Part shown: positions 627 through 53,295 of the stretch, piece after piece
Numbering within the stretch: the stretch's first letter is position 1
How the letters are laid out: each line of letters opens with the position of its first letter
IMG/VR virus record: IMGVR_UViG_3300028384_001023
Span: 1 to 57,138 of that record
Reading direction: 5' to 3' (one strand)
From: a virus
Taxonomy: Duplodnaviria > Caudoviricetes
DNA length: 57,138 nucleotides
Translations under genes and position numbers: made by a program
The notes under the pieces: generated by a model
Told to the model about the DNA's origin: nothing
Seen by the model: the letters and a program-made list of their open reading frames with translations, nothing else
Databases searched by the model: none

Positions 627-654
627 AGATCTATAATAAAGAAGGAGCTATATT

Positions 655-2041: not shown

Positions 2042-2755
2042 ATGAATATTTCTACGTTATGTCCTACTTGGCAAAGACCTCGTAGTTGTGAGTTGATGAT
2101 ACAAAGTTGGCTAACTAATACAAAAAACTCAGAGCTACATATTTACGTGCAAGATGGTGATCCATGTCATGATGAATATGTAGCTCTGAGTACTCAGTAC
2201 CCGCAATTAAAATGGACTTTTGGACCTCGTCATACGACTGGAGTTTTATGGAATAAACTCTATGGTTCCGCACGTGCAGATATCATACATTTAGGTAGCG
2301 ATGATCTCAACTTTCGGACGAAAGATTGGGACGAAAAGGTTTCTAAAATAGTAAACGAACACTTCCCTGACGAAGTCTATAATATCTCACTATGGGAAGG
2401 AAACTCTGATAAGCATCAAGGCATGATGTGTCGTCATCCTATCGTATCTCGAAAGATGATCGAACGACTAGGATATTTCTTTCCTCCATTCTTTATTCAT
2501 TATAATGTTGATTGCTGGTGGGCAGACATAACCAAGGCCATAGGACGTTTCGCTATCGTAAGAGATATCGTAGTTGGTCATGTGAGAGAGAACGCAACTG
2601 AAGAAAATGATTGGCGTGAAGAACACAAGACATCTGCAGAAGCAAATCGAAACGATAATCTATGGGCTCATAGAGACAAATATGTGATGCGTACAAGTAT
2701 TAATAGATATAAGAATATGGATATTAAAGCATTAAGGAAAATGATTGACAAATGA
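2042..2755 (+). CDS. GT-A (family 2-like) glycosyltransferase
   Basis: N-terminal LCPTWQRP, ADIIHLGSDD, HYNVD motifs; cassette context. Confidence 0.65.
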   Translation: MNISTLCPTWQRPRSCELMIQSWLTNTKNSELHIYVQDGDPCHDEYVALSTQYPQLKWTFGPRHTTGVLWNKLYGSARADIIHLGSDDLNFRTKDWDEKVSKIVNEHFPDEVYNISLWEGNSDKHQGMMCRHPIVSRKMIERLGYFFPPFFIHYNVDCWWADITKAIGRFAIVRDIVVGHVRENATEENDWREEHKTSAEANRNDNLWAHRDKYVMRTSINRYKNMDIKALRKMIDK

Positions 2756-3753
2756 AGATTTTTATAACTGGAATAGCTGGATTTCTTGGTAGTCATTTAG
2801 CTGATAGGTTTATTGAGCTTGGTCATGATGTAGTTGGAAACGATAATCTGATTGGAGGTTATGAAGATAACGTCAATCGCAAGGCTACATTATACAAAGT
2901 AGATTGTTGTGATCATGAGAGGATGAGAGACATCTTAGAAGGTGTCGATATTGTAGTACATGCTGCAGCTACAGCACATGAAGGTCTAAGTGTTTTTAGT
3001 CCTGATTTTATCACAAAAAATATATTTCAAGCAACAGTGTCTACAGTAAGCGCAGCTATCGCAAACGATGTAAAGCGATTTGTATTCTGTACTTCAATGG
3101 CCCGATACGGTGACCAACAAGTGCCGTTTCATGAAGACATGTCTCCTATGCCTGTTGATCCATACGGTATTGCTAAAGTAGCATCTGAACAAGTGTTGAA
3201 GTGTTTGGCCGAAACTCATGGTATGGAATGGAACATTGCTGTGCCACATAATATCGTTGGTCCTCGACAAAGATACGACGATCCATTTCGAAATGTGATG
3301 AGTATCATGATCAATCGAAACTTACAAGGTAAACCATCGATCATTTATGGTGACGGCATGCAAACACGTTGTTTTTCCTATGTAGATGATTGTACTGCAT
3401 GTTTAGAAAAGATGGCTTTAAATCCAGATATTACGAGTCAGATCATTAACATTGGGCCTGATGAAGGTACTATCACGATCAAAGAACTCGCTGAACTCGT
3501 TGCTGCTGAGACAGGATGTAATCAACAACCACAACATATGCCAGATAGACCACGAGAAGTTAAGCATGCGATGTGTTCATCGGATAAAGCACGTGATTTA
3601 CTCGACTATCAAACTACAGTAGATGTCCGTACCTCTGTCTCTCGAACTACAGAATATATAAGAAGTAGAGGTTGGCGAAAGTTTGATTATACATTCCCTA
3701 TTGAAATCGTCAACGAAAAAACACCGAAGACTTGGAAAGATAGGTTAATGTAA
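2752..3753 (+). CDS. NAD-dependent nucleotide-sugar epimerase/dehydratase
   Basis: GIAGFLG Rossmann motif, YGIAK catalytic YxxxK, HNIVGP. Confidence 0.92.
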   Translation: MKIFITGIAGFLGSHLADRFIELGHDVVGNDNLIGGYEDNVNRKATLYKVDCCDHERMRDILEGVDIVVHAAATAHEGLSVFSPDFITKNIFQATVSTVSAAIANDVKRFVFCTSMARYGDQQVPFHEDMSPMPVDPYGIAKVASEQVLKCLAETHGMEWNIAVPHNIVGPRQRYDDPFRNVMSIMINRNLQGKPSIIYGDGMQTRCFSYVDDCTACLEKMALNPDITSQIINIGPDEGTITIKELAELVAAETGCNQQPQHMPDRPREVKHAMCSSDKARDLLDYQTTVDVRTSVSRTTEYIRSRGWRKFDYTFPIEIVNEKTPKTWKDRLM

Positions 3754-4331
3754 TGACAACAAGAGTTGAAATGCTAAAAGGTTTCCCACGTGGAATGACA
3801 GTATGTGAAGCTGGTACAAGGACTTGTGATTATACAAAATACATGGCTGGTAAATGGTTAGATGCGAAGAAAGTATGGATGATAGATTACCAAGATGAGA
3901 AGGTAAATCAAAACTTTGCAAAGGTCCACGAGAAATGTCAATTTATTCAAGGAAGATTTGACGAAGTAATACCACAAATCGGTGAGATCGATATGGTGTA
4001 TATTGATGGTTGGCATTCTTATGAAGATGTATCTCGAGATCTTCGTGATTTTGATCCTATTACAAAAAGGTATTTTGCTGGTCATGACTGGATTCCAGAA
4101 GATGCACCAATGGATTTTCATAATCCAAAGAAACATAAGTTTGAAGTAAGACAGGCAGTAACTGATTGGTTAGAAGAGACAGGCTACTATCTAACGTTTG
4201 TGACTGACGATCTTAGCAATAGACAACATGACCCTGACGCTAAAGGCGGTCAAAAACCTCTATACTCTTGGGTAGTTTCGAAGACTGAAGAAGACCGTGA
4301 TTTATTTTTGGAGAATTTAAATGCCACTTGA
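3753..4331 (+). CDS. class I SAM methyltransferase (Methyltransf_24-like)
   Basis: CEAG, DMVYIDGWHSYE, AGHDW. Confidence 0.75.
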   Translation: MTTRVEMLKGFPRGMTVCEAGTRTCDYTKYMAGKWLDAKKVWMIDYQDEKVNQNFAKVHEKCQFIQGRFDEVIPQIGEIDMVYIDGWHSYEDVSRDLRDFDPITKRYFAGHDWIPEDAPMDFHNPKKHKFEVRQAVTDWLEETGYYLTFVTDDLSNRQHDPDAKGGQKPLYSWVVSKTEEDRDLFLENLNAT

Positions 4332-4857
4332 TACACTTGATGTAATTTATAATAGGAATAAAACACCTAAGATTGGTTGGGGTGATAAAGGTACATTTCA
4401 TAGTTATATTGGTTACTATGCAGCAACATTTGAAGAATTCCGCGAAAGCGCAAAAAATGTACTTGAAATCGGTGTTAAAGGCGGACATTCTCTTAATATG
4501 TGGAAACAGTATTTCACTAATGCACATGTAATTGGAGTCGATATTAAACAACGTGATACTGTCTGCCCTACATGTCAAGTCATTTGGGGAGATGCTACGC
4601 TAAAAGAAACATTTACAAATGTACCAAAACTTGATATAATTATAGATGATGGTTCACATGATATCGAACATCAAATTAAATCTTTTGAGATCTTATGGCC
4701 TAAACTGAAAAAAGGTGGAGTCTATATCATTGAAGATGTTCAAGATATTGATTCAACTCAGGACAGATTAATGGCACTCGATGAGTCTGCTGTTTTACAT
4801 GACTTCAGAAAATTTCTTGGCAGATACGATGACGTGGTAGTTGAGTATAGAAAATGA
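4321..4857 (+). CDS. class I SAM methyltransferase (sugar O-methyltransferase-like)
   Basis: VLEIGVKGGHSL, IGVDI, DIIIDDGSH, GGVYIIED. Confidence 0.8.
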   Translation: MPLDTLDVIYNRNKTPKIGWGDKGTFHSYIGYYAATFEEFRESAKNVLEIGVKGGHSLNMWKQYFTNAHVIGVDIKQRDTVCPTCQVIWGDATLKETFTNVPKLDIIIDDGSHDIEHQIKSFEILWPKLKKGGVYIIEDVQDIDSTQDRLMALDESAVLHDFRKFLGRYDDVVVEYRK

Positions 4858-5636
4858 AAAGAATGATATATCAGGTGTATGTTGGTAAGAGACGTCGTCT
4901 CTATGACCATTGTACACAATCGGTAAAGCAGTATTGTGATGAACATGGAATCGACCATGTAGTCCAACGTTCACCAATCCTGATGATTAAACCAGATCCT
5001 TTCATGACGAATAGACATCCTCGAGCCACAGAGCCTCTTGGATGTTTACCTATCTTTGAAAAGGAATGTGCGTTTGCTCATTGGCCAAAATATGATCAGA
5101 TCGCTATCATAGATTCAGACATTTGGATTAGACCAGGTGCACCAAATATCTTTGATGAGTTAGGTACTGAAGATTTTGCTGGAGTGGTCGAAAGACAAAT
5201 GCCTCTCACAAAACAACACCGCAGATCAGTTGATAACTATGCTCAAGCTCAATATAGATCACTACGCGATGTTGAATGGAATTGGGAAAAAGGTAATGGT
5301 GCTGACTATATCAATATGGGCATGATGCTAATGAATAAATCCTTTGAGAAATACTTAAAAGGACAAACACCTCATCAGTTCCTTAAAAGACAGGAGTTCA
5401 AGCCTTTTATTGATGGTGCTGGAGATTGGAAGTGGTCGACCGATCAAACACTTTTAAACTGGTGGATTCGTAAAGAGCGAATGAAGATCAAACAGCTTGA
5501 CTGGAAATGGAATGCTCTTTATACCGCAATGGATAATAAGATGATCAAAAGTGCGCACTTTGTACATTTCTTTAAACAACAAAGTCTACCTCATAATGGT
5601 GAAAACATCGAAGAGTTAATGAAACTGGTAGGGTAA
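4854..5636 (+). CDS. GT-A glycosyltransferase (GT8-like)
   Basis: IIDSD DxD motif, NMGMML, DQTLLN, WNALY, HFVHF. Confidence 0.75.
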   Translation: MKRMIYQVYVGKRRRLYDHCTQSVKQYCDEHGIDHVVQRSPILMIKPDPFMTNRHPRATEPLGCLPIFEKECAFAHWPKYDQIAIIDSDIWIRPGAPNIFDELGTEDFAGVVERQMPLTKQHRRSVDNYAQAQYRSLRDVEWNWEKGNGADYINMGMMLMNKSFEKYLKGQTPHQFLKRQEFKPFIDGAGDWKWSTDQTLLNWWIRKERMKIKQLDWKWNALYTAMDNKMIKSAHFVHFFKQQSLPHNGENIEELMKLVG

Positions 5637-5637
5637 A

Positions 5638-6426
5638 TTGAAAAAATTAATATATCAAGTATATACTGGAGATCGCAGTAAATTATATAATCACTGTACT
5701 AAGTCTGTACGTAGATATGCAGATCGTATTGGTGCAGATTATAAAGTACAACGATTACCTATCTTAAACATTAAACCAGACCCGTTCAGGACGAATAGAA
5801 CTGGAAAAGCTGGTGGATGGGCAAAACATGGTTATATGCCTATCTTCGAGAAAGAGAATGTCTTTAATGAGTTTGATAACTATGATATGTGTTGTGTGAT
5901 TGACTCTGACGTTTACGTAAGAGAAGATGCTCCTGATATATTCGATGAATTAAACGGTGAAGCAGTTGGTAGTGTTTATGAATGTGATTTGCCAATCGGT
6001 AAAGAATACAGAGATAAGATCAGAGGATATTCATTCAATATAGTAAATGGTCTGGATGTAAAATGGCCAAAGACCGATGACAGAAGAGGATATGACTTCT
6101 TCAATTCTGGTGTTATGCTTTATGATTCAAAAAAGATGAAAGAGGTACTAAACGGCATGGGCCCAAGAGAGTTTCTAGAACAGCCCATGTTAAAAGATTT
6201 TATTGATGGAGTTGGCTCTCTTCGATGGCAGTCAGATCAGATGACTCTTAACTATTGGTTCTTAAAGAAAAAAGTAAAAGTAAATAGGATGGATTGGAAA
6301 TGGAATGCTCTCTTTTCTGCAGTAAATGAAGACAGAATCAAAGATGCATATTTCGTACATTTCTTTTTGAAAGATTATTTACCTGAAAAGGGCGAAGACG
6401 TAGAAGGTTTGATGAAACTAATATGA
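5638..6426 (+). CDS. GT-A glycosyltransferase (GT8-like), paralog of upstream gene
   Basis: VIDSD, FNSGVML, DQMTLN, WNALF, YFVHF; colinear with 4854-5636. Confidence 0.75.
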   Translation: MKKLIYQVYTGDRSKLYNHCTKSVRRYADRIGADYKVQRLPILNIKPDPFRTNRTGKAGGWAKHGYMPIFEKENVFNEFDNYDMCCVIDSDVYVREDAPDIFDELNGEAVGSVYECDLPIGKEYRDKIRGYSFNIVNGLDVKWPKTDDRRGYDFFNSGVMLYDSKKMKEVLNGMGPREFLEQPMLKDFIDGVGSLRWQSDQMTLNYWFLKKKVKVNRMDWKWNALFSAVNEDRIKDAYFVHFFLKDYLPEKGEDVEGLMKLI

Positions 6427-7136
6427 TTAATAATAAAAAACTCTTTATCCATATTCCTAAAAATGGTGGTATGACTATTCGCCATACTACAAGCATTCTA
6501 TACGACAAGATCATCGTGCCTAAACTTAATCTCCTAATTAACGGAGAGTATCAAGATGCATTTGTGAAAAAAATGAAACAAATGAAAAGGCCAAATATTC
6601 CTGCAGAGCATGCACGATGGCAAGATATGAGTGTGAGTTTACGTATGGCACACGATGCATTTGCTATTGTACGTAATCCATGGGATAGAGTAGTATCACG
6701 CTATATGTTTAAGGCATATCAAACTCCTGGTTATCTTGAAGAAGTTTCATTCGAACAGTTTATTGAAGAGCGTCATGAATACGAAGGTGAAGCTGGTGAC
6801 TATACTTGGCATTTGGCAATTAAGGGATGGTTTCCAGCAGCAGATTATGTCACTGATAAAAAAGGTAATCTTAAATGTGATATGATGAGATTTGGAAATA
6901 TGCACGAAGACGTAGCAAAATACTTCCAATTACCAGCATCAACGAAGTTTACTATTCGCAATGTGTCAAACGGTCAAAAAAATAACGATCGAAGTAAAGT
7001 AATAGATAGAAAACCATATCAAGAGTTTTATAACGATAAGACTATTCAAATCATTGCTGATCATTATAAAAAAGATATTGATCTATGGGGATTTGATTTT
7101 GACACAGAAGCACAAAAGAATTATTGGAATGTATAA
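6423..7136 (+). CDS. sulfotransferase (Sulfotransfer_2-like)
   Basis: FIHIPKNGGMTI and VRNPWDRVVSRY PAPS-binding motifs. Confidence 0.8.
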   Translation: MINNKKLFIHIPKNGGMTIRHTTSILYDKIIVPKLNLLINGEYQDAFVKKMKQMKRPNIPAEHARWQDMSVSLRMAHDAFAIVRNPWDRVVSRYMFKAYQTPGYLEEVSFEQFIEERHEYEGEAGDYTWHLAIKGWFPAADYVTDKKGNLKCDMMRFGNMHEDVAKYFQLPASTKFTIRNVSNGQKNNDRSKVIDRKPYQEFYNDKTIQIIADHYKKDIDLWGFDFDTEAQKNYWNV

Positions 7137-7834
7137 TGAAAGCATTTGTAATTACTGTACGTGGTCATAGACAAGATGAGATTCAATCAGACTTATGCTT
7201 AAGATCTATGGCAGAAACACCAGGCTGGGAACCTGATCAACTATACGGTTATACGGCAAAAGATAAAGACTTATTCGAAGGACGTTGGGGTTTTCCAATG
7301 ATTGAGAATGCTCGGCTACGGGCATTTGAGAAAGAAGATCTACATCGTTTTTTGACGAAGAAAGCCTGTTTCTATAATCACGTGAGACTATGGGAAAAGT
7401 GTATTGAACTAGACGAGCCGATCGCATTCATCGAATCTGACACGGTTTGTATTAGACCGTGGGAAGAACCAGAATGGGAAGAAGTACTCATACTGAATGT
7501 AGAATCTGCGATGTCAAATGAGAGAGGTCCTATCGGACCATCAGAACAGTTGCTAACAAAATATAGAGATGGTTTACAACCAGGAATTCATAGCTTTCAT
7601 AAAGCGCCGACTAAATATCATCGAGATAATCGTATGAAAGGTTATGCGCATAATCCAGGTAATGGTGCATATGCATTTACTCCAAAAGGTGCTAAACGGC
7701 TACTCGAAGCAGCAAAGAATGGTATAGATCAAGGAGATCTATTTGTGAACGCGTCTAATGTAAAGATGCAGTATGTATTTCCTTCATACTTTACTTTCAG
7801 TGGACCTAATTTAGGGTTAAGTCATGGCTTTTAA
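7136..7834 (+). CDS. GT25-like glycosyltransferase
   Basis: KAFVIT, ACFYNHVRLWEKC, FIESD, AYAFTPKGAKRL. Confidence 0.7.
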   Translation: MKAFVITVRGHRQDEIQSDLCLRSMAETPGWEPDQLYGYTAKDKDLFEGRWGFPMIENARLRAFEKEDLHRFLTKKACFYNHVRLWEKCIELDEPIAFIESDTVCIRPWEEPEWEEVLILNVESAMSNERGPIGPSEQLLTKYRDGLQPGIHSFHKAPTKYHRDNRMKGYAHNPGNGAYAFTPKGAKRLLEAAKNGIDQGDLFVNASNVKMQYVFPSYFTFSGPNLGLSHGF

Positions 7835-8522
7835 AGCGCATATTATAACGATTAATAATCATGCAATATCTGAAGCCGCATCAGATGCATGTATCATGTC
7901 ACACGATCAAGTAAAGAATGACTTTGATATAGAAGTATATGATGCTGTAACTCCACCCAATACAGGAGATATGATAAACAAATATGGGCTGAAATGGAAT
8001 TATCCATGGGAAGGTGTAGAACTTGATATGGCTGCAGGTTTACGTAAGAGCGCTTATCGTACTGCCGATCCTTTAGCTCGTATCGCATGTGCATTATCAC
8101 ATTATGACTTATGGGTTCGATGTGCAGATTCAGAGCCAATGATGGTACTCGAACATGATGCTCGTTTCATGCATAAAGTGCCTTATGAAAAAATACTTGA
8201 TACAAATTTCAATATCGTAGGTATTAATGATCCAATCGGTGCTACACGAAGAGCACGACTCTTTGCCGAGAAGATACAAACCGCGAATAAATTTGTTACT
8301 CCTGTACCGAGTATTGATAACTTTGATGTTCCTCAAGGTTTAGCTGGAAACAGTGCATACATAATTAAACCAGCTGGAGCTAAAGCTTTAATTAAAGCTG
8401 TAAAAGACTATGGATTATGGCCGAATGATGCTATCATGTGTAAACAACTGATTAAGAGAATGGGTGTGACAAAGAAGTATTATACGGTCGTACAAGGATT
8501 ACCATCAACTACTACGGATTGA
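7824..8522 (+). CDS. GT25-like glycosyltransferase
   Basis: ACALSHYDLW, VLEHDA, AYIIKPAGAKAL. Confidence 0.75.
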   Translation: MAFKAHIITINNHAISEAASDACIMSHDQVKNDFDIEVYDAVTPPNTGDMINKYGLKWNYPWEGVELDMAAGLRKSAYRTADPLARIACALSHYDLWVRCADSEPMMVLEHDARFMHKVPYEKILDTNFNIVGINDPIGATRRARLFAEKIQTANKFVTPVPSIDNFDVPQGLAGNSAYIIKPAGAKALIKAVKDYGLWPNDAIMCKQLIKRMGVTKKYYTVVQGLPSTTTD

Positions 8523-8524
8523 AC

Positions 8525-9178
8525 ATGAAAGCCTTTGTAATTACAATTGAACACTTTGAAAAATCAGTACAATCAGCCAAGCGTTGTATTAAATCTGGTA
8601 AAAAGTATGGACTTGATATCGAGATGTGGAAAGCAACCACTCCTTCTGACAGACCTCACAAGATTCTCGAATCTAAAGACATTCCTATCCAACCATTTAA
8701 TGAGATCTATTCAAGAACTACAAATTGTATGGCAGCATTCTGTTCTCATATGTCTCTATGGGAACATTCTATCGCCATCGATGAACCAGTTATCGTATTC
8801 GAACATGATGCCATTGTGACAGGAACATTACCCGAAGACTTACAGTTTGATCGTGTAATTACATTTTCTAAGCCTTCGTATGGATCTTATAATACTCCTA
8901 TAACAGTTGGTGTTCAGCCACTGGTACAGAAAAGCTATTTTGGTGGAGCACACGGATACATAGTTACTCCTGAAGGATCACGACAACTGATAGAAGGAGC
9001 AAAGAAAAATCCAGCTTCTACAGATGTATTTTTGAACCTAAATAATTTTCCATGGCTAGAAGAATATTATCCATGGACTTGTATCGCTGCAGATGGTTTT
9101 ACGACTATTCAAGTAGAAGCAGGTTGCCAAGCAAAACATCGTTATGGCGAAGGGTATGTAATCGAAGATGTCAAATAA
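8525..9178 (+). CDS. GT25-like glycosyltransferase
   Basis: AAFCSHMSLW, VFEHDA, GYIVTPEGSRQL. Confidence 0.75.
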   Translation: MKAFVITIEHFEKSVQSAKRCIKSGKKYGLDIEMWKATTPSDRPHKILESKDIPIQPFNEIYSRTTNCMAAFCSHMSLWEHSIAIDEPVIVFEHDAIVTGTLPEDLQFDRVITFSKPSYGSYNTPITVGVQPLVQKSYFGGAHGYIVTPEGSRQLIEGAKKNPASTDVFLNLNNFPWLEEYYPWTCIAADGFTTIQVEAGCQAKHRYGEGYVIEDVK

Positions 9179-9836
9179 AAAATTAGAAAAGGCCTTTTTA
9201 ACGGGCTGTGATGCGACAACAGAATGGCAGCTACCGTTCTTTATTAAGAAGTATAAAGAGTTTAATCATAAAACTCCTCTCATCGTATGCGACTTTGGTA
9301 TGACAGAAAAAACGATGGAGACAGTAAACAAACATCCTGATATTAACATCGTAATGTCATATCCAAAGAAAGACATGGTAGAGAAAGGTTGGTTTTTAAA
9401 ACCAATGACTATGTTTAATGCACCTGCAGAACAACTCTGTTGGTTTGATACTGACTGTATTTTTCATGCAAACGTAGATAATATCTTCGACCACTTCGTT
9501 GAAAATAAACTAAACATGGTAGAAGATAAACCCTGGTCAATGCGTAGAGGAGAAGTGTGGCATAATTCGGGTGTCGTAGGTATGATAGGAAAGCCTCACA
9601 TCTTGTATCATTGGGTAGATGCAGTACGAAAGAATCCATCAGTAGGCGACCAAGAAGTACTTCATAGTATCTTAACTCCAATCACCCGTCTACAACATAT
9701 CAATACAATCTTGAATAGATATAACGTATTGCGGTTACAAGTAGAACATGATGGATATAAAGGAAAGATTCATGTGATGCATTGGACAGGCAAAAAAGGC
9801 AATGATAGAATTAAGGAGTTGATGAAAAATGGCTAG
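9168..9836 (+). CDS. GT-A glycosyltransferase (GT8-like)
   Basis: WFDTDC, NSGVV, GDQEVL, HWTG. Confidence 0.7.
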   Translation: MSNKKLEKAFLTGCDATTEWQLPFFIKKYKEFNHKTPLIVCDFGMTEKTMETVNKHPDINIVMSYPKKDMVEKGWFLKPMTMFNAPAEQLCWFDTDCIFHANVDNIFDHFVENKLNMVEDKPWSMRRGEVWHNSGVVGMIGKPHILYHWVDAVRKNPSVGDQEVLHSILTPITRLQHINTILNRYNVLRLQVEHDGYKGKIHVMHWTGKKGNDRIKELMKNG

Positions 9837-10458
9837 AGTAGTACACCTGATTGGTAACGGTGATAGCGCTATGCTGTATCAAAAGTTTGAAGAACGAAAA
9901 GGCTTGAAACTGACATGCAATATCCCACCCTTTGAGGTTCCTGATGCTTATGCTACGTGCATTGTAGATTTTAAGTTCATTGATACGATCAAAAAGGGTG
10001 AATTAGATCCTCGAGGTCAATGGATTTGTGGTGTACGACCAAAGATGTATTGCGAGAAACATGTCAATTGGCATATGAAGGTCGCTCATCGCATCAAAGA
10101 ATTCTATACAAAAAAGCCTAAGTATGCAAAAAATTACACTGACTTTAATTGTGGTCATTTCGCAGCATATTATGCATTAGAAAAACTCAAAGCCGATGAA
10201 ATCCATATGTACGGCTTTGACTCAATACTTGATATGAACTTACGTAGCTACACAGATCTCGTATTGGGATCAGATCGTGGTGCTATGAATAACGTCAGAC
10301 TATCAGGAAATTGGCGCCCGATTTGGGAAAATATGTTCAAAGAATTTAAGAACGTAAACTTTCACCTCTATCATTTTCATAATAAAGCAAAGATCAAGGT
10401 GGCTGATAACGTAGAAATTCACGTTATACCAAAAAAAGGTTTACAAGCTGCTGGATAA
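9829..10458 (+). CDS. putative Maf/DUF115/CstII-fold transferase
   Basis: LIGNGDS N-terminal motif and NCGHFAAYYAL...IHMYGFD. Confidence 0.45.
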   Translation: MARVVHLIGNGDSAMLYQKFEERKGLKLTCNIPPFEVPDAYATCIVDFKFIDTIKKGELDPRGQWICGVRPKMYCEKHVNWHMKVAHRIKEFYTKKPKYAKNYTDFNCGHFAAYYALEKLKADEIHMYGFDSILDMNLRSYTDLVLGSDRGAMNNVRLSGNWRPIWENMFKEFKNVNFHLYHFHNKAKIKVADNVEIHVIPKKGLQAAG

Positions 10459-10468: not shown

Positions 10469-10494
10469 AGACCTATAATTGAGAGAGGTTTATT

Positions 10495-13534: not shown

Positions 13535-13634
13535 AATAGAAGCACTGAAAAAAGATAACGCAGAACTAACAAAGGCTTTGTATGCAGCCTACGCTCGCAT
13601 TAAAGAGCTCACAGAAAAAAGCGAAAAAAATTAA
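13527..13634 (+). CDS. small coiled-coil protein (35 aa, not in ORF track)
   Basis: AGGAGG RBS; MTEIEALKKDNAELTKALYAAYARIKEL. Confidence 0.6.
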   Translation: MTEIEALKKDNAELTKALYAAYARIKELTEKSEKN

Positions 13635-13653
13635 AAAAAAGTGAAAAAAACTG

Positions 13654-13682
13654 TGTACAATCTGCCCAAAGCATGGTATAAT
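13654..13682 (+). promoter_or_regulatory. sigma70-type early promoter
   Basis: Long A-tracts, TGTACA-17 bp-TATAAT, with TGG before the -10. Confidence 0.8.
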
Positions 13683-13718
13683 ATACCTATAAAATGAAAA
13701 AAGCTGAGGAGCTAAACA

Positions 13719-13883
13719 ATGAAAAAAGTTATCGAATATTTTACCATCACTGCAACCATGGAAAACGGTGACAAGTGGGAAACACGTCGTCATACACGTG
13801 ACGGTTTGACTGATGTTATCAACTCTATCTGGAAAGATGACAAAGTCGTATCATTCTCTGTTGTTGAAAAGGTGGCTGCATAA
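13719..13883 (+). CDS. hypothetical early protein (54 aa, not in ORF track)
   Basis: GAGGAG RBS; MKKVIEYFTITAT...EKVAA; TAATG coupling to next gene. Confidence 0.7.
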   Translation: MKKVIEYFTITATMENGDKWETRRHTRDGLTDVINSIWKDDKVVSFSVVEKVAA

Positions 13884-14167
13884 TGGAAAAGGCATTAGTA
13901 GATTATATCTTAGCACAACGTGCTGAAGCAGAAGCATTTACTGCAGCTGCACCTGGTAACTTTATGGGTATGCTTCCACATCCAGACGAGTTTGTTTATT
14001 GGTCAAGTCGTGTGCCAACTGGTACAATGGCTGAGTTCGAGCGGATTGAGCTTGAAGAGTCAGCGTACTATATGGCTGCAGATGCGATGAGCAAGTCTTA
14101 TGCTCGTTTCATTAGTCCTAAACTGTCAGAGATGACAAACGGTGAGCTACACCATTCGTACACGTAA
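13883..14167 (+). CDS. hypothetical protein
   Basis: Translationally coupled ORF. Confidence 0.65.
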   Translation: MEKALVDYILAQRAEAEAFTAAAPGNFMGMLPHPDEFVYWSSRVPTGTMAEFERIELEESAYYMAADAMSKSYARFISPKLSEMTNGELHHSYT

Positions 14168-14303
14168 GTTATGGCATTGTCTCGTAGCTCCTGATGGAGT
14201 ACACTATTATGATGAGATAGATAGTATCATGGGTCCTTACAAGAAGGCAAAGCGAGAGACAGTAAAGGACATCATCTCATATATCGAATTCCAGCGAGGT
14301 TGA
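14142..14303 (+). CDS. possible small protein or gene remnant (53 aa)
   Basis: GTG-SYTIRTRKLWHCLVAPDG...EFQRG; no clear RBS. Confidence 0.4.
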   Translation: MSYTIRTRKLWHCLVAPDGVHYYDEIDSIMGPYKKAKRETVKDIISYIEFQRG

Positions 14304-14439
14304 GTATTAGCTCCTCTCTCGCTCCCTCGCTGGAACACAAATGGAAAGTCCTGAGTAAGACTAACTCGCGGGGTACAAAGTTAGAAGCAATGTTGCTTAC
14401 TATACCACGTCATGTGAAGAAGAGAAAACTGCTTTTTTT
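14289..14439 (+). ncRNA. candidate structured small RNA (11-bp hairpin with anti-RBS loop plus further stems, ending in a T run)
   Basis: TTCCAGCGAGG/CCTCGCTGGAA; CTAACT/AGTTAG; AAGCA/TGCTT; T7 tract. Confidence 0.4.
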
Positions 14440-14481
14440 AAATTGTCGAACGAGTAAAAACGTGGTTAAGCCGGGAACGAC

Positions 14482-14489
14482 TATAAATA
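14482..14489 (+). promoter_or_regulatory. T4-type late promoter
   Basis: TATAAATA in a region without a credible gene. Confidence 0.7.
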
Positions 14490-14494
14490 AAGAC

Positions 14495-14630
14495 ACCGGT
14501 AGGAAGAGGGTAATCCTTCATAAGAAACCCTCATAACAAATGGAGAATGCATCCAGCACGTATATACTGGCTCTGCTTAATTTAAGGGTGATGCCTTAAT
14601 ACATCCGCGGTGGCCAACGGTTAGCCACCA
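14495..14630 (+). ncRNA. candidate pseudoknot-rich RNA or structured leader
   Basis: Interleaved complementary pairs directly after late promoter (see findings). Confidence 0.4.
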
Positions 14631-14650
14631 ACTTAATATTGGAGAAAAAC

Positions 14651-14857
14651 ATGATTGCAATTATCGGTCTGTTAGCACTCTTCTCAGTTAATGAGCGTGA
14701 GTTCTTAGACGAAAAACTTAAATGGAACGAACAGGGCTATAACTATTGGGCACAGATTGGTTGTCGTGCACCAGATCCAAATGCCAAGTCGATCACGATT
14801 AAAACACCGATTGGAAATGAGTACGTATGCTTCAAACAAGTGAAACGCCCAGAGTAA
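14651..14857 (+). CDS. hypothetical protein with N-terminal hydrophobic segment
   Basis: GGAG RBS; MIAIIGLLALFSV. Confidence 0.6.
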   Translation: MIAIIGLLALFSVNEREFLDEKLKWNEQGYNYWAQIGCRAPDPNAKSITIKTPIGNEYVCFKQVKRPE

Positions 14858-14986
14858 ACATAGGTGATTATCTTCTATGTTGTATATCGGCATGGATGAT
14901 GACACAATCGATACTTAATGGTAGTGTGTTTTGGTTTTTGATTGGTTACATGCTTTTTGTTAACTATGCAGTATGGAGAAAAGAAA

Positions 14987-15247
14987 ATGTCTGATGATTT
15001 TGATTTTGGTTTCACTGCGGTAGATGAAGCAGAACTCGATGTAGTAAAAAAGAAGCAAGAGACTATTGACCTACTTGATGTTGGTCAAAATGTGACTCAA
15101 GATAAGCTCGATCGTTTGTATAATGCTATCACACCTCTGCTTAATAATCTCAAAAAGAATCCTGAAAAGGACTATATCCTCTGGCCTAATCGCGTCGAGA
15201 AGGTTGATCAGTTTGAAGACATGCTGAGAAAAATTTACAATTCGTAA
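14987..15247 (+). CDS. hypothetical protein of a type seen in T4-like phages
   Basis: GGAG RBS; DFDFGFTAVDE...LKKNPEKDYILWPNR. Confidence 0.7.
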   Translation: MSDDFDFGFTAVDEAELDVVKKKQETIDLLDVGQNVTQDKLDRLYNAITPLLNNLKKNPEKDYILWPNRVEKVDQFEDMLRKIYNS

Positions 15248-15256
15248 AAAAAAGCA

Positions 15257-15285
15257 TGTACAACTGTGTGATTATATGGTAGAAT
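15257..15285 (+). promoter_or_regulatory. sigma70-type early promoter
   Basis: A-tract, TGTACA-17 bp-TAGAAT, with TGG before the -10. Confidence 0.75.
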
Positions 15286-15317
15286 ATACCAGTAAAATTG
15301 ATAATGAGGAGTTTACT

Positions 15318-18345: not shown

Positions 18346-18373
18346 AGATCTATAATTGGAATGGAGCTATTAT

Positions 18374-20190: not shown

Positions 20191-21114
20191 ATGTCATTCC
20201 AAAATCTAAAACGCAATCGCGATCAAATTTCCAAACTCGTTCAAGCAGCAGAAGCAGCTGGTGGTGGTGCATCAGGTGAAAAGAAAAACTATGATGACGA
20301 ACGTATTTGGAAGCCAACCGTAGATAAGGCAGGTAATGGTTATGCAGTACTACGATTCTTGCCGGCCGCCGAAGGTTCTGAACTACCATGGGTCAGATAC
20401 TGGGATCACGGCTTCAAAGGCCCAACCGGTCTATGGTATATCGAAAACAGCCTTACATCTATTGGTCAGCCTGATCCAGTTGGAGAACTCAACTCCCGGT
20501 TGTGGAATTCTGGCCACGAAGAAGACAAAGAAAAAGCCAGAAGTCAAAAGCGCAGACTCCATTATGTAGTCAACGCATTGGTCGTATCAGACCCTTCTGC
20601 TCCACAAAACGAAGGTCGTGTTGTACTCTATAAGTTCGGCAAGAAGATCTTTGACAAGATCACCGATAAGATGCAGCCTGAATTTGCGGATGAGACACCT
20701 GTAAATCCATTTGATATGTGGGAAGGTGCTGACTTTAAATTGAAGATTCGTCAAGTCGAAGGCTATCGTAACTACGATAAGTCAGAGTTTGCATCACAAT
20801 CTGCTCTCTTTGATGGAGACGAAACAAGGCTTGAAGAGACTTACAATAAGCTGCATAACTTGTCAGAATTTGCAGATCCAAAGAACTATAAGACTTATGA
20901 TGAGTTAAAAGCAAAACTTGCACGAGTTCTTGGTGAAGAAGCTGTAAATGGAGGTGCACCTCAAATGTCTCAGATGGCTCAGATGAATGAGCCAATGGCA
21001 GCTCCAGCTATGCCCGTAACAGAAGCTACACAGCCTGTTACAGCTGCTGAGATGAGCAGTCAAGACGACGATGATACGATGTCATACTTTGCTAAACTGG
21101 CAAACGACGACTAA
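20191..21114 (+). CDS. gp32: single-stranded DNA-binding protein gp32
   Basis: DKAGNGYAVLRFLP, WYIENSLTSIG, KFGKKIFDK, GADFKLKI; acidic tail. Confidence 0.97.
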   Translation: MSFQNLKRNRDQISKLVQAAEAAGGGASGEKKNYDDERIWKPTVDKAGNGYAVLRFLPAAEGSELPWVRYWDHGFKGPTGLWYIENSLTSIGQPDPVGELNSRLWNSGHEEDKEKARSQKRRLHYVVNALVVSDPSAPQNEGRVVLYKFGKKIFDKITDKMQPEFADETPVNPFDMWEGADFKLKIRQVEGYRNYDKSEFASQSALFDGDETRLEETYNKLHNLSEFADPKNYKTYDELKAKLARVLGEEAVNGGAPQMSQMAQMNEPMAAPAMPVTEATQPVTAAEMSSQDDDDTMSYFAKLANDD

Positions 21115-47390: not shown

Positions 47391-47884
47391 TTACCTCAGA
47401 AAACCTTGTACAGGCTCGTTATACTGATGACGCTCGTACTACTATTGAATGTTTAATTAAAAATGACGTAGATGATTTGATGCATTCTTTCTATGTCAAC
47501 GTTGACCCTGAGAATGTTTATTTTCAACAGTTAATGACAGTTGCATCTCTCGAAGATATTGATGCATGGTCAGAGACTTACTATGCAAATATCCGTGAAG
47601 AGATTGAGACAGTACACACCCAACTAATCGAAGCTGGCAAGGTTGATTATACACGTATTGCTGGTCCAGAAGATACTGCTCAACAAATGGAAAAGTATGC
47701 ACAGATGATGTTTGCATACGACGACACTGATACCGATCACGTTGAAAAGATGTTTAACTTGAAGCTTGAGCTGTTTGAGTTAGATGAAGTAGAAAACGCG
47801 GATAGCGCAACAAAAGAAGCTTTACGTTTAGAGGATGATCCTGTAAATCTTGTTAAACAATTATGGGATATCAGGAATCCATAG
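47387..47884 (+). CDS. hypothetical acidic protein
   Basis: GGAG RBS, coupled ORF at end of tail operon. Confidence 0.65.
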   Translation: MITSENLVQARYTDDARTTIECLIKNDVDDLMHSFYVNVDPENVYFQQLMTVASLEDIDAWSETYYANIREEIETVHTQLIEAGKVDYTRIAGPEDTAQQMEKYAQMMFAYDDTDTDHVEKMFNLKLELFELDEVENADSATKEALRLEDDPVNLVKQLWDIRNP

Positions 47885-48482
47885 TGTAGTGTAATAACTT
47901 TACATTTGGGTTTACTTTATCTAAATAAAAGTAATCACCTGGGTATTTACGATTTATTTGAGTCAACCATTCTTTGGTTGGCTCTTTTATCATACGGCCA
48001 CACCATTCATCAGGTATAAATTTCAAATCGAGTCTCTTCTTAACCATGTACTCTACGAAATTCTCTTCGCCGTTTACAGGACCAGGTTTTACACCGAGTT
48101 TAATAAAATACTCTTCCCAAAAGAATTGAGATTGTACAAACTCGTCGTAGATATATCTTACGTCGTCAGGATAAAACTTATAAAAACCACCGTTGAGTTC
48201 ACAACCTGATACTTCTTCCCACCATGACCTCATACTCAAGAACTCTCCGCGTTTTATCGGATAGTTGATGATATCCATGTAGTCATTGATTAGGTCAATA
48301 TCAATATCGAGTACTACGACTGGCTCAGGACCTTGCACATTAAAGAAATTTATCTTATTCCACTGTAGCTTAAATTGTCCTTCATGCATAACTTCGATAT
48401 GCGGTATACGTTGCCGTATATGGTCTTCATAATCTAGCCCATATTTACTGCCTATGCGGCACGTATAAACCCTCAATTCCAT
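47871..48482 (-). CDS. glycosyltransferase-like protein
   Basis: CRIGSKYG, VVLDID, NGGF; paralog of 48473 and 51421 genes. Confidence 0.6.
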   Translation of the reverse strand: MELRVYTCRIGSKYGLDYEDHIRQRIPHIEVMHEGQFKLQWNKINFFNVQGPEPVVVLDIDIDLINDYMDIINYPIKRGEFLSMRSWWEEVSGCELNGGFYKFYPDDVRYIYDEFVQSQFFWEEYFIKLGVKPGPVNGEENFVEYMVKKRLDLKFIPDEWCGRMIKEPTKEWLTQINRKYPGDYFYLDKVNPNVKLLHYTMDS

Positions 48483-49246
48483 AGTTCTTCTACCTTGTCA
48501 TACATCTGTGCTGCTTCATGTAATTCAAAATTAGTAGAGTTATTTGGATCAGTGTTGAATACACATATAATCTTGTCGTCTCTGAGTTTATGTCTTTCCA
48601 TATCATCAGGCCATTTACAACCTCGATTGAACGAGTAGTACATTGAAGGTGGTAGAAAATCAAACTTATCAAGATGACGTTGACTAATAAAATTGTCTGA
48701 TCCACCTGTGTAGATATGATAGATCCTTTCAGCGTGTTCTATACAATCATTCCAAATATCTATTAACTGAGTATCATCCCACATATAAAATCCACCATTA
48801 TTTTTGGCACCATGTCGATGCTTCCAATCAGGGTTATTTTCGTGTTCTGGATTGTGCCACCAAGATCTACCTGTCAATGGTCTTCCTTTGTACAGATTGA
48901 GTATAGGAGTCATATCGTTGTGTATGATAACGTCTAAGTCAAGTGCTATTCGTAAACCAGTTAAGCCCCAACAATACGGTTTAAAGTAGTTTAACTTTGG
49001 TCTGTCCCATAGGCGAGGCTTTCCGTTTCTCCAGTTATCTGAAGAAAACATTTCATCTGGCGTTGATTCTGGTAGGTCTCGTAGGAATGGGAGTATGGTT
49101 ATACGTTCATCTATTCCCTGTGCATCCTCTGTCTGACAGTAGAATTTAAATTCACAGGGCATATGTTTTTTAACCATATTATAAAGCCGATTGACATATA
49201 TTGGTTCATATTTGTCTCCCCACTTACTGCATATGATATTAATCAT
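48473..49246 (-). CDS. glycosyltransferase-like protein
   Basis: CSKWGDKY..YVNRLYNMV, ALDLDVII, NGGFYMW, GSDNFI. Confidence 0.65.
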   Translation of the reverse strand: MINIICSKWGDKYEPIYVNRLYNMVKKHMPCEFKFYCQTEDAQGIDERITILPFLRDLPESTPDEMFSSDNWRNGKPRLWDRPKLNYFKPYCWGLTGLRIALDLDVIIHNDMTPILNLYKGRPLTGRSWWHNPEHENNPDWKHRHGAKNNGGFYMWDDTQLIDIWNDCIEHAERIYHIYTGGSDNFISQRHLDKFDFLPPSMYYSFNRGCKWPDDMERHKLRDDKIICVFNTDPNNSTNFELHEAAQMYDKVEELWN

Positions 49247-49865
49247 CTCTTTCGCCAATAATCATAAATCTCTTATTATAATGATAATCATCGAATGGTA
49301 TCTCACCCTTATAGAAAGGTTTTATGATACCTGTCTGTTCTTGAAATTCTTCAAGAGATTCTACACAGTTTACATGAGCAGGTTCTTGTATGAAATCGTT
49401 TGATTGGAAAGCACACATGCCTTTGAATCTAATATCCTTCATATGCCACATATGCTCGCATGATGTATTGATTATGATATCTGCTTCAAGACTCTTCATG
49501 TCAAAGCTAATATCTCGACATTCGGTAGTAATATTACTGAACATCATCTTTGCTATATTCAATGTTCCGTGATCATAATCAACTAATACGATCTCTTTAA
49601 TATCTTTTAAATAATGTCTTAAGAGAGGAACGATTAGTGTACCATACCAAGCACCGAGTACATAGATGGTCTTATCCTTTTTTCCAGCCACAGGTGATAA
49701 TGATAGTCTTTCGACTAACCAAGATTTAGCTCTTATTTGATTTTCAGAATAAGAACGGGCGAAGTCTAAAGATCGATGCGGGTATTCTACTGCTATATGT
49801 TGTGCTATACGAGAAAATGTCCAAAATGGTATTGGACACTTAAGCATTGTTTTTGTAATAGTCAA
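49239..49865 (-). CDS. class I SAM methyltransferase-like protein
   Basis: VLGAWYG, LVDYD, IINTSCEH, RFMIIG. Confidence 0.65.
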   Translation of the reverse strand: MTITKTMLKCPIPFWTFSRIAQHIAVEYPHRSLDFARSYSENQIRAKSWLVERLSLSPVAGKKDKTIYVLGAWYGTLIVPLLRHYLKDIKEIVLVDYDHGTLNIAKMMFSNITTECRDISFDMKSLEADIIINTSCEHMWHMKDIRFKGMCAFQSNDFIQEPAHVNCVESLEEFQEQTGIIKPFYKGEIPFDDYHYNKRFMIIGERDD

Positions 49866-50610
49866 AGCTTTTTCCTCCCAAGACTTGGCCGTCTACATTA
49901 CAACTAATACAAGGACTCATGATTCTTTTTCCCCTCATCATTAAATTACGATAAGAATTAAAGTAATCTGATTCCCATATATCGTGTATCCAATCTCTGT
50001 TTACATTACCAAATACTTGGCTTACGTTCCAATCATTACTGCATAGACCAACATCACCATTCCAATTTACAAACATCTTATAGAAGGGTAAGAAACATGC
50101 TCGTTCTTTATTGATTATCTTTTTATCAGACCACATTTCATTTCTGTTTACCTCTACCTCTTCTGGTAAACCAGTATAATAATGTTTGTATATACGTTCG
50201 ATATCGTATTGTTTTAAAAAAGACTCATAATGTTCTGTCATGTCTTCATCATACATAGAGACCTTTATGCAGTTAATACCTGCTTTTACAAGTTCAGCCG
50301 CAGACTCTGATGTTAGATAATCACCATTTGTTATGAGCTTTATCTGTTTTAATTGTACACCACTTTTTAGTGTTTGTACATAGTTTTTTATTTTTTTATG
50401 TAATAAAGGTTCGCCGAACCCAGCTAAGGTAATAGTTCCCTGATAATCTAAGTTTCGTAGAGAACGATTAATCGACTTAATCGTATTCATACTCATCTGC
50501 GATTTTGTATTTTCAAATCCTACACCGCGAGGGCAAAAGCTGCATGTACGGTTACATATGTCAATGAGATTCAATTCTATCGAAGAAAGGGTGTTCCTTG
50601 TTAAGCGCAC
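49840..50610 (-). CDS. radical SAM/SPASM-twitch protein
   Basis: CNRTCSFC, GFGEPLLH, ITNG, CFLPF..GDVGLC, CISC. Confidence 0.9.
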   Translation of the reverse strand: MRLTRNTLSSIELNLIDICNRTCSFCPRGVGFENTKSQMSMNTIKSINRSLRNLDYQGTITLAGFGEPLLHKKIKNYVQTLKSGVQLKQIKLITNGDYLTSESAAELVKAGINCIKVSMYDEDMTEHYESFLKQYDIERIYKHYYTGLPEEVEVNRNEMWSDKKIINKERACFLPFYKMFVNWNGDVGLCSNDWNVSQVFGNVNRDWIHDIWESDYFNSYRNLMMRGKRIMSPCISCNVDGQVLGGKSFDYYKNNA

Positions 50611-51445
50611 TTTTTGTCACCATATTACGATTAATTAATGCCATTCGGCCATATCCATCAAACTCTTTTAAGTGAAAGTGTTTGGTGAACTTATCATAGT
50701 TTTTCAACATCACATAGTTTCCATGCGAAGGAATGCATGCGTAATTCTTTTCTATATATGTCTTAGTTGCGTTCATCCTTTTGATATGATGAGGTATCTC
50801 ATCTAACATACTCGGTAAGTTTTCTGCTACTCCACCAATGCACACATGAGCTGGTCTTAGGTTTTGTATCTCGTATATGAGTGCCTCGTGGCCAATCGCC
50901 CAACCAAAACGAATTCCAGGTAACGCCAACGATTTGCTCATTGTCTTGAGGTAAAGTACGTTTGGTGTACCAAGTTTTACTGATGGAGTTTCACAAAAAT
51001 CACCGTACGCTTCGTCAATGATTACTAATTTATGTTTATCGATATATTCCTTATAGTCTTCTATAAGTTTACCATTCTCTCCATGAGGATTAGCTATATA
51101 GCAAACGTCTTGACCATGAGAAACTCCATAGAGTTTTTGAGCCATGGCTACTGGCTTCCAAGAACTGATATTTGTCAATGACATATTTTTTGATTTGATG
51201 ACTTGCATTATACGCATCAGCAGTTCGCTCAAGCCTAATCCAATAGCGATTTGTCTATTATAAACTTGATGATAATCTGCTAGTATATTATAGCATGTCG
51301 CAGTATTCGAGTATCTCGAGTAATCAAACTCGTAATGAGGCAAACCAGCATCCCAACAAACATTAGTCGAAAGATCGATTTTGTAATCTCGATGGTACTC
51401 GTCTTTTGTCCAGTCTGGTCTTATTTCCAGTAATCTTGTATCCAT
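50561..51445 (-). CDS. class I/II PLP enzyme (HisC/CobD-like)
   Basis: DLSTN, IANPHG, IIDEAYGDF, KTMSKSLALPGIRFG. Confidence 0.85.
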   Translation of the reverse strand: MDTRLLEIRPDWTKDEYHRDYKIDLSTNVCWDAGLPHYEFDYSRYSNTATCYNILADYHQVYNRQIAIGLGLSELLMRIMQVIKSKNMSLTNISSWKPVAMAQKLYGVSHGQDVCYIANPHGENGKLIEDYKEYIDKHKLVIIDEAYGDFCETPSVKLGTPNVLYLKTMSKSLALPGIRFGWAIGHEALIYEIQNLRPAHVCIGGVAENLPSMLDEIPHHIKRMNATKTYIEKNYACIPSHGNYVMLKNYDKFTKHFHLKEFDGYGRMALINRNMVTKSALNKEHPFFDRIESH

Positions 51446-52032
51446 TTGTCCTCTCTTAACTCATCTTGTTTTTTGTCTAGCATGATGTGTATTTGATCGA
51501 GAGGTCTTTCATATAAGACATAATCATTTGGAAAACGATGCTCGATAAAAGAATCAATGCCAGTAAAGACACTCATTATTTTTTCTTGATTGTCAACAAA
51601 GTATTTCCAAATATGATTCCTTTTCGTCTCTTTATTCCATGACATTACCGAAGAGTTGATAGAGCAATATCGCTGTCTGTTGCCAATCGTTTCTTCTCTG
51701 AGTTTAGCTAAGTCAACCCAACTCGTATGTAGCATTTTCATGTATAAATCAGGACGATGAATTTCGTTGATGTCACCTTTAATTACTATATCTAAGTCGA
51801 AGAATACTCCTTCTTCGATAAAGTCTTCGTCAAATAAAACCATTTTTGACCACCACTTTTGTAATCGTGTTGGAGCTTCAATAGTTTTTATATATTTAGG
51901 TAGCGTACTCGCATCATCAGTTATACAATTCATAGTGTACGGTTTATCGTAAGTACGAGATATCATACTTTCGAGTTTAATTACAAACTCATCACTATAT
52001 CTTGATCCTACCTTCACGCAATAAAAGTTCAT
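51421..52032 (-). CDS. glycosyltransferase-like protein
   Basis: CVKVGSRY, WWSKMVLF, FFDLDIVI, INSSVMSW. Confidence 0.65.
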   Translation of the reverse strand: MNFYCVKVGSRYSDEFVIKLESMISRTYDKPYTMNCITDDASTLPKYIKTIEAPTRLQKWWSKMVLFDEDFIEEGVFFDLDIVIKGDINEIHRPDLYMKMLHTSWVDLAKLREETIGNRQRYCSINSSVMSWNKETKRNHIWKYFVDNQEKIMSVFTGIDSFIEHRFPNDYVLYERPLDQIHIMLDKKQDELREDKWIQDYWK

Positions 52033-53276: not shown

Positions 53277-53295
53277 TTCATAGAACTTCTGTGCT

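Follow-up and report, generated by a model that had tools for sequence, protein, structure and literature searches.

The question raised by the locus described here is whether a single RNA hairpin can recognise the early genes of a phage as a class and restrain their translation. It lies in the IMG/VR virus record IMGVR_UViG_3300028384_001023, whose whole length of 57,138 bp (estimated 28% complete, G+C 37.7%) was analysed and is called the window throughout. An earlier note on this DNA had drawn attention to a hairpin at 14289-14335 whose loop is antisense to the ribosome-binding sites of the first genes behind five early promoters, and had read it as a trans-acting small RNA that shuts down translation of the early genes together. 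To our knowledge, hardly any regulatory RNAs have come to light in strictly lytic phages, and we know of no account of early gene shut-off in marine T4-like phages. Our analyses show that this element, hereafter the CU-loop hairpin, is a genuine conserved RNA structure of the + strand with an exposed, CU-rich and fixed loop, and they make it a good candidate for an RNA regulator that adjusts or stops the production of early proteins in the window phage and about twenty relatives. Two features carry the argument, the second being a motif that resembles an anti-Shine-Dalgarno (anti-SD) sequence.

14289..14335, + strand: CU-loop hairpin, identified by fold, covariance model and covariation.
14310..14320, + strand: invariant anti-SD-like loop motif GCTCCTCTCTC (complement GAGAGAGGAGC), from a comparison of 20 distinct hairpins.

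The hairpin is as the earlier note described it: the arms TTCCAGCGAGG (14289-14299) and CCTCGCTGGAA (14325-14335) form a perfect 11-bp stem, being 100% complementary with 25 nucleotides (nt) between them, and TTAGCTCCTCTCTC lies inside at 14307-14320. The fold comprises this outer stem, a 2-nt bulge (14300-14301), an inner stem of 4 bp (14302-14305/14321-14324) and an open loop (14306-14320), and its minimum free energy is -22.2 kcal/mol compared with -10.7 +/- 2.7 kcal/mol for 200 shuffled sequences (z = -4.3), none of which was as stable. Between 13600 and 15300 it is the sole inverted repeat of at least 10 nt within 80 nt, and the whole 57-kb window contains just three perfect stems of at least 11 bp with a loop, this one among them. 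Folding the whole intergenic region as a single RNA gave no single compact fold (z = -0.9). The hairpin was rejected as an intrinsic terminator: it does not combine a GC-rich stem with a U-tract, what comes after the stem being CACAAAUGG in the window and, in relatives, AACCUUAUAAAUAG, and a terminator scan of the window omits it. Nor does it belong to a catalogued family. At gathering thresholds the window matches no Rfam 15 family, and no match covers the hairpin; at E<=10 the only match in 13600-15300 is to an unrelated CRISPR-repeat model elsewhere in that interval (E = 7.8), and in 18 related loci only tRNAs are matched. ARAGORN predicts no tRNA or tmRNA gene in the window; the tRNA genes of relatives adjoin the hairpin, none overlying it.

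Conservation was assessed in related viral loci, 42 of which were recovered with a 94-aa open reading frame (ORF A) of the preceding operon as bait and a further six with a 68-aa ORF downstream; within these loci the hairpin segment reappears as a separate block of conservation. A covariance model, R1, was built from 14 copies of the hairpin; it scores the window hairpin at 70.3 bits on the + strand and 22.4 bits on the minus strand, and finds matches on the + strand in 22 of 47 sources. Of 46 whole related IMG/VR records, 21 contain the hairpin, in a single copy each and with the same operon always preceding it. When viral contigs were scanned for the pattern TTAGCTCCTCTCTC, at least 112 stretches were returned, and the 80 examined included eight real hairpins, one of them new (L171); scanning with TAACTCCTCTCTCTC returned 71 stretches with four real hairpins, two of them new (L243 and L248). 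R1 did not find the hairpin in three cultured relatives (C48C1, Melnitz-3 and S-CAM8), the only match, in Melnitz-3 (E = 0.012), being a false one inside a coding sequence and without the CU word. Given this, and at least three members added by the scans of IMG/VR, the hairpin looks confined to one uncultured marine clade. Near and distant DNA searches against cultured phages yielded nothing useful besides a single 95-nt match to Phage C48C1 in a neighbouring ORF.

The stem has been maintained by compensatory change. In 17 sequences aligned to the model, pairing holds in 98.8% of cells, and for 12 of 15 pairs both partners have changed; fitting to a model favours the structure, but the compensatory changes are still plain in the raw sequences. 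None of 500 shuffles reached the observed value for four of five measures and only one did so for the fifth (further pair types), while sliding the partner by 1-3 columns in the same alignment reduces pairing to 32-54% of cells. The hairpin alignments used were model-based, MAFFT alone having mis-aligned divergent clades among the 20 distinct hairpins. Those 20 rows, read on the + strand, give canonical pairs in 290 of 300 cells, including 15 G·U or U·G pairs that would be A·C mismatches on the opposite strand; because these fit the + strand only, the molecule under selection is the + strand RNA. Conservation of the loop was one of the conditions that the earlier note had set for its reading, and the loop word GCUCCUCUCUC is indeed fixed in the 20 distinct hairpins, the sole change being G to A at its first base (ACUCC...) in the clade of L046, L047, L243 and L248. 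In the relatives the open loop is 13-20 nt long and the base of the stem always reads UU...AA, followed by NCC. These features persist across clades with 60-87% protein identity.

What might such a loop recognise? The five leader matches reported in the earlier note are all present, each behind a sigma-70-type promoter. These promoters (at 618, 10460, 13674, 15277 and 18337) precede short leaders and consist of an A-run, a -35 element T(G/T)TACA, realised as TGTACA or TTTACA, and an extended -10 element TGGTA(T/G)AAT. A sixth match to the promoter pattern, at 32950, was not counted, having no A-run, no T(G/T)TACA element and no leader following. The list below gives the promoter of the hairpin's own operon and the five leader matches.

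13654..13682, + strand: early sigma-70-type extended -10 promoter of the operon ending in the hairpin, from the promoter scan.
13706..13715, + strand: Shine-Dalgarno (SD) leader of the first gene of that operon, GAGGAGCTAA, a 10-nt perfect complement to loop positions 14307-14316.
643..650, + strand: early leader match AGGAGCTA.
10481..10488, + strand: early leader match GAGAGAGG.
15306..15311, + strand: early leader match GAGGAG, before the ATG at 15318.
18363..18369, + strand: early leader match GGAGCTA.

The longest match to the loop in the window is thus that of its own operon, whose predicted duplex energy is -18.6 kcal/mol with the loop against -8.4 kcal/mol with the 16S tail; among the 20 GGAG leaders of the window, GGAGCTA occurs in exactly three, all of them leaders of early first genes.

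This preference extends to early leaders as a class. We compared 76 distinct leaders behind promoter-pattern matches with 357 other SD-bearing starts, taken from the window, from six related contigs in full and from the other loci by simple heuristics of our own, which leave a few 'early' entries (e.g. the gp32 leader) doubtful. A complement of at least 7 nt to the invariant 11-mer occurs in 33 of the 76 early leaders and 32 of the 357 others, a significant excess in the direction that the earlier note had anticipated; this is what the multi-target seed of a trans-acting base-pairing small RNA would show, subject to the caveats of cassette paralogy and of CU-rich control probes discussed below. 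By contrast, a complement of at least 6 nt to the 16S tail is found in 9/76 early and 83/357 other leaders. The early leaders read (A)GAGGAG(C/U): GA precedes GGAG in 42/62 early against 30/168 other leaders and C follows it in 21/62 against 16/168, whereas G after GGAG, which would extend pairing with 16S, occurs in 3/62 against 34/168. Mean duplex energy with the loop is -10.9 kcal/mol for early leaders and -7.95 kcal/mol for others (p = 6e-12), and the loop-minus-16S difference is -2.8 and -0.4 kcal/mol respectively.

As separate observations on these leaders, many of them (13693-13698 in the window; L019, L021, L028 and L035) share a conserved box, AAAUG(A/G)AAAA, that lies 8-12 nt before the SD and supplies an out-of-frame AUG near the 5' end of the leader, and in another clade an AGAGAG box, to which the loop is complementary as well through its 3' half, stands at the start of the transcript.

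Beyond the invariant core, matches are longer but peculiar to lineages. The leader of the hairpin's own operon matches the loop over 10-11 nt in L003, L005, L007, L008 and G001, and that of the next operon does so over 13 nt in G044 and 11 nt in L046. The extension into CTA/CTAA flanks that the earlier note had described is therefore present in the window, but it is not conserved across clades: those with loops ending ..CUCGCUCC, ..UUUCGCUCC or ..CAUUGCUCC (flanks CUCG, UUUCG or CAUUG) retain GGAGCUA or GGAGUU leaders, from which it follows that only 7-8 nt pair, within the invariant part. Matches within a genome exceed permuted ones (p = 0.0004 over 16 sources, which are related to one another), and the clade with the ACUCC loop has no GGAGC among its ~9 early GGAG leaders, which fits pairing.

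We favour, at about an even chance, the reading that the CU-loop hairpin is an anti-SD riboregulator situated in what would be the untranslated 3' end (3'-UTR) of an early operon's mRNA; as an interpretation, the earlier proposal is thereby partly supported. What the analyses show is the structure with its conservation and strand, the invariance of the loop and its class-specific complementarity; accumulation of the RNA, its pairing, the sign of its effect and its action in cis or in trans are what we infer. The loop word would base-pair with the (A)GAGGAG(C/U) ribosome-binding site of early leaders. Because the hairpin sits in a presumptive early-operon 3'-UTR, pairing of 5' and 3' ends in cis is as possible as action in trans: the cis target would be the leader of its own operon, closing the mRNA, and trans targets would be the sister early leaders, possibly reached after excision of the hairpin by tRNA-processing nucleases. 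In either case pairing would block binding of the 30S subunit, and early translation would be damped or switched off.

Several observations weigh against regarding the hairpin as a regulator aimed at early leaders. It is absent from the sequenced DNA of 25 of the 46 related records, and early leaders with matches of at least 7 nt are not clearly commoner where it is present (28/61 in hairpin-bearing sources and 5/15 in sources without it). Control probes also bind early leaders better, both the reversed loop (p = 5e-8) and one shuffled loop (p = 2e-5); since such CU-rich controls share the preference, part of the signal merely reflects purine-rich leaders. The early leaders belong to repeated cassettes of promoter early stem-loop (PeSL) type and so are not independent, and their shared GAGGAGY may reflect common descent or gene conversion of promoter-leader cassettes and not selection for pairing. 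For the last three invariant bases of the loop (CUC), the A-rich consensus leader offers nothing to pair with. Co-variation of loop and leader, a check the earlier note had proposed, is suggestive only: flank co-variation is weak when the seven clade representatives are permuted exactly (188/5040, p = 0.037), and matches between genomes can be equally long, the window loop matching G014 leaders over 11 nt and the G001 loop matching G013 leaders over 13 nt. Finally, L248 has the ACUCC loop yet its own leader reads GGAGA.

The surroundings of the hairpin bear on how it might be produced and on what else it might be. It follows the stop codon of the last ORF of the operon started at promoter 13654-13682, with no further promoter or terminator predicted between that promoter and the hairpin, and is succeeded by small structured elements.

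13719..13883, + strand: 54-aa first gene of the operon, without a family match.
13883..14167, + strand: ORF A, 94 aa here and 105 aa in relatives, shortened by a 121-nt deletion.
14142..14303, + strand: ORF B (74 aa in L003), reduced to a remnant by the deletion, which took its start; the hairpin's 5' arm consists of the final codons of this ORF, EFQRG-stop.
14482..14489, + strand: TATAAATA, a T4-type late-promoter word in the non-coding region.
14549..14577, + strand: module M3, a small conserved hairpin (GCA..CCAG-loop-CUGG..CUCUGC), identified by co-occurrence and covariation.
14609..14629, + strand: GC-rich hairpin with loop CAACGGTTA, immediately preceding the next small ORF's SD.
14651..14857, + strand: next gene, 68 aa with a small hydrophobic N-terminus, no family match.

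In the closest relatives the first gene behind the early promoter is followed by ORF A (105 aa) and ORF B (74 aa), the latter varying at third codon positions. The deletion in the window, with its junction at 14155-14170 (compare L003 940-1070), takes away 13 codons from the end of ORF A and 28 from the beginning of ORF B, giving ORF A a new 3-residue tail and stripping ORF B of its start; it leaves the hairpin intact. Different ORFs end at the hairpin in other clades, and in five relatives a member of another hairpin family, whose loop (C)UUACAGACGGUUGGACGAUAGAA is fixed while the stem co-varies and which the window lacks, stands between the end of the ORF and the CU-loop hairpin (L008 ~2470-2510, L009 ~3525-3575, L022 ~3520-3575, L027 ~3545-3615 and L002 upstream of 3614). 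Since the hairpin persists behind other ORFs, behind an inserted hairpin and past a deletion, coding constraint does not explain its conservation.

Downstream content varies by locus, and includes TATAAATA, a pseudoknot-like module, other small hairpins and tRNA genes. TATAAATA lies 3-6 nt past the hairpin in nine distinct relatives (L002-L006, L008, L009, L022 and L047), and it is read as a putative T4-type late promoter because it adjoins structural genes, standing directly upstream of them at six of its ten occurrences in the window. In L016 a tRNA-Arg begins 4 nt past the 3' flank of the hairpin, while L007 and L021 have tRNA-Arg, tRNA-Gly or both within ~140 nt. M3 is present in all 20 loci with the CU-loop hairpin and in none of 25 without. 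Three of its pairs co-vary, its general form is GCA(Y)CC-stem-UAUA loop-stem-C(U/A)CUGC, and it usually comes after a start-less GGAGAA and before the GC-rich hairpin and the SD of the small ORF; as L003 has TATAAATA just upstream of it, M3 may be a late small RNA or 5' leader. With M3, tRNA genes and small hairpins downstream, the CU-loop hairpin heads a tRNA and small-RNA region, a context that would fit an abundant processed RNA. A further module, M2 (14440-14545 in the window; also L014, L049, L007, L015, L021 and L046), has the form GUCGAG..GGUUAAGCC.., with a stem whose A/U loop contains TATAAATA-like words, followed by a likely H-type pseudoknot, read by eye (AGGA/UCCU and GAGGG/CCCUC in the window; GGGA/UCCC and GAAGG/CCUUC in L014).

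The genome itself can be placed more generally. Genes of T4 type, assigned by PHROGs, include baseplate hub and wedge, tail tube, DNA end protector, head completion and a gp32-like single-stranded DNA-binding protein (20191-21111), the last being nearest among cultured phages to Phage C48C1 (57.6%), the OM43 phages Melnitz (55%) and cyanomyoviruses (~52%), all Kyanoviridae. The window phage is a member of an uncultured marine T4-like (Kyanoviridae-related) clade; among the sequencing runs listed, none of RNA contains the stretch, and runs at contig level, mostly marine, contain only small shares of it (0.12-0.17). Two long runs of back-to-back ORFs of 180-290 aa (2042-10458 on the + strand and 47871-56126 on the minus strand) show several matches to sugar-modification enzymes (glycosyltransferase, nucleotide-sugar epimerase, sulfotransferase), most ORFs having no PHROG, and may represent large accessory cassettes whose enzymes are paralogous or related. 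Inside a glycosyltransferase-like ORF of the first run (2042-2755) lies a 17-bp inverted repeat with a 31-nt spacer (2127-2191), the longest of the window's perfect stems.

Among other explanations, one that seems possible, though we think it on the unlikely side, is that the hairpin is recognised by a protein or acts in RNA processing or stability, its likeness to an anti-SD sequence being incidental. Ribosomal protein S1 prefers pyrimidine-rich single strands, and the pyrimidine loop might be read by this or another host or phage protein; alternatively, a 3' hairpin might shield early mRNA from 3' exonucleases or mark cleavage between the mRNA and the tRNA/small-RNA region. Such roles would suit the invariance of all 11 loop bases, including the CUC that cannot pair with the consensus leader, as well as the fixed stem base and following NCC, the position immediately between a stop codon and tRNAs or late-promoter words, and the strict co-occurrence with M3. 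They leave unexplained, however, why the loop should coincide over 8 nt with a class-specific leader motif that departs from the best fit to 16S, and why lineage-specific matches should reach 10-13 nt; no candidate protein was identified. We hold it clearly improbable that the element works at the level of DNA or transcription as a cassette boundary, whether a terminator or insulator before a late promoter, a late analogue of the PeSL and PmSL cassettes of T4-type phages, or a recombination joint in a hyperplastic region. The mosaic of swapped modules downstream would fit a boundary, as would the TATAAATA words that follow closely in the nine relatives and precede structural genes in the window, and PeSL elements are themselves described as a stem-loop with promoter and SD (PMC4122927, in the parts defining them). 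Yet PeSL stem-loops are multi-copy without a fixed loop word, whereas the CU-loop hairpin is single-copy with a fixed loop and co-varying stem; its G·U pairs point to the + strand RNA as the object of selection, the terminator scan and the lack of a U-tract speak against termination, and no TATAAATA follows directly in the window or in 10 relatives.

More doubtful still is a device of the kind found at T4 gene e, in which the anti-SD loop would occlude the ORF at 14651 in early read-through transcripts while late transcripts from a downstream TATAAATA escape. The order of anti-SD, late promoter and ORF is indeed seen in many relatives, and T4 e, soc, 49 and I-TevI are documented examples of the principle (PMC3014915, in its passages on these genes), but the SD of the downstream ORF, UUGGAGAA, pairs with the loop over just 4-5 nt, the longest downstream complement is 5-7 nt, and the two lie 150 to >600 nt apart with tRNAs between that would be cut out. 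The least credible account, to which we attach hardly any weight, makes the hairpin a palindrome arisen by chance, the decayed remains of an inverted leader cassette or half of a local switch. On the minus strand the loop does read like a leader (GAGGAGCTAA), but no start codon follows at SD spacing, and a palindrome or relic of this kind is contradicted by compensatory stem changes conserved across the clades and by G·U pairs that fit the + strand only. As to the switch, which the earlier note had placed at 14261-14269, a 9-nt partner, AGCGAGAGA, does exist in the window; it lies in coding sequence, however, and is unconserved, shrinking to 7 nt in L003 and to unrelated words of 4-7 nt in the other 18 loci, and we reject it.

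The anti-SD riboregulator that we favour would have parallels, anti-SD hairpin RNAs being a known kind, although apparently none has been described in lytic T4-like phages; literature searches by motif word and topic found no description of the hairpin, the motif-word matches being to unrelated eukaryotic work. The nearest precedent for action in cis is the icaR mRNA of Staphylococcus aureus, in which a 3'-UTR anti-SD motif, UCCCCUG, pairs with the SD of the same mRNA, blocking initiation and creating a substrate for RNase III (PMC3868564, in the passages on this pairing). In the phages too a pyrimidine-rich word, in a presumptive 3'-UTR, is complementary to the first-cistron SD of what would be the same transcript, over 10 nt in the window (13706-13715/14307-14316), 10-11 nt in the five sources named above and 7-8 nt in other clades, and by this likeness cis action on its own operon may be proposed for the CU-loop hairpin. 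As far as the account of icaR goes, the differences are that the CU-loop hairpin is phage-borne, carries its word in the loop of a co-varying 15-bp hairpin and fits a class of sister leaders also. The Cuckoo RNAs of Alphaproteobacteria (CcsR1-4/ar14/NfeR1; PMC4615179, in its description of the family) likewise combine variable stems with one fixed anti-SD-like C/U-rich loop word. They consist, however, of two to four adjacent hairpins each with CCUCCUCCC, whereas the CU-loop element is one phage-borne hairpin with GCUCCUCUCUC and no Rfam match, and it is not a member. To the C-rich loops of RNAIII type, as the same source presents them, it may be likened in a similar manner, without membership.

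Among phage elements, PeSL and PmSL resemble the CU-loop hairpin as stem-loops adjoining a promoter word in a hyperplastic region, and the early promoter-leader cassettes of the window are PeSL-like (PMC4122927, as far as its definition reaches). By that definition the hairpin itself is not one of them, being single-copy with a fixed loop, a co-varying stem and no U-tract, and followed, if at all, by a late and not an early promoter word. T4 rnaC and rnaD (species 1 and 2; NC_000866) are comparable as small structured non-tRNA molecules in a phage tRNA region, presumably released by tRNA-processing enzymes, but bear no likeness to it in sequence or fold: rnaC ends in a tRNA-like T-arm and neither has a CU-rich loop. 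Near the hairpin, at 14346-14363, a separate small hairpin, GUC-CUGAGUAA-GAC, does have an 8-nt loop word in common with a hairpin of rnaD (L214, minus strand, ~3876); this is probably chance, the word being conserved in no relative.

The closest functional comparison is with RegB of T4, an endoribonuclease that inactivates early GGAG leaders by cutting (PMC3014915, in its treatment of RegB). In both cases a particular flavour of early SD, GGAG and its context, would allow inactivation of the whole class; RegB is a protein nuclease, whereas in the marine clade the class-specific reader would be an RNA. Neither four partial hairpin-bearing records nor the complete C48C1 genome, where RegA is present, yielded RegB in a search that recovered the T4 positive control; as the hairpin-bearing records are fragmentary, this only leaves room for the idea of replacement by an RNA. 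Tentatively, then, the 'early' class might be written into the ribosome-binding site itself, as GAGGAGY and not the best fit to 16S, and one abundant hairpin RNA, freed from the tail of an operon by tRNA-processing enzymes, might silence all early operons, an RNA-only substitute for RegB and a delay timer between early and late expression. Clear covariation and a fixed 11-nt loop make the hairpin a ready candidate for a new RNA family, absent from Rfam. If the regulatory reading is true, a single-hairpin anti-SD RNA would constitute a compact, portable translational timer, and would offer a testable reason why early leaders depart from the optimal SD sequence.

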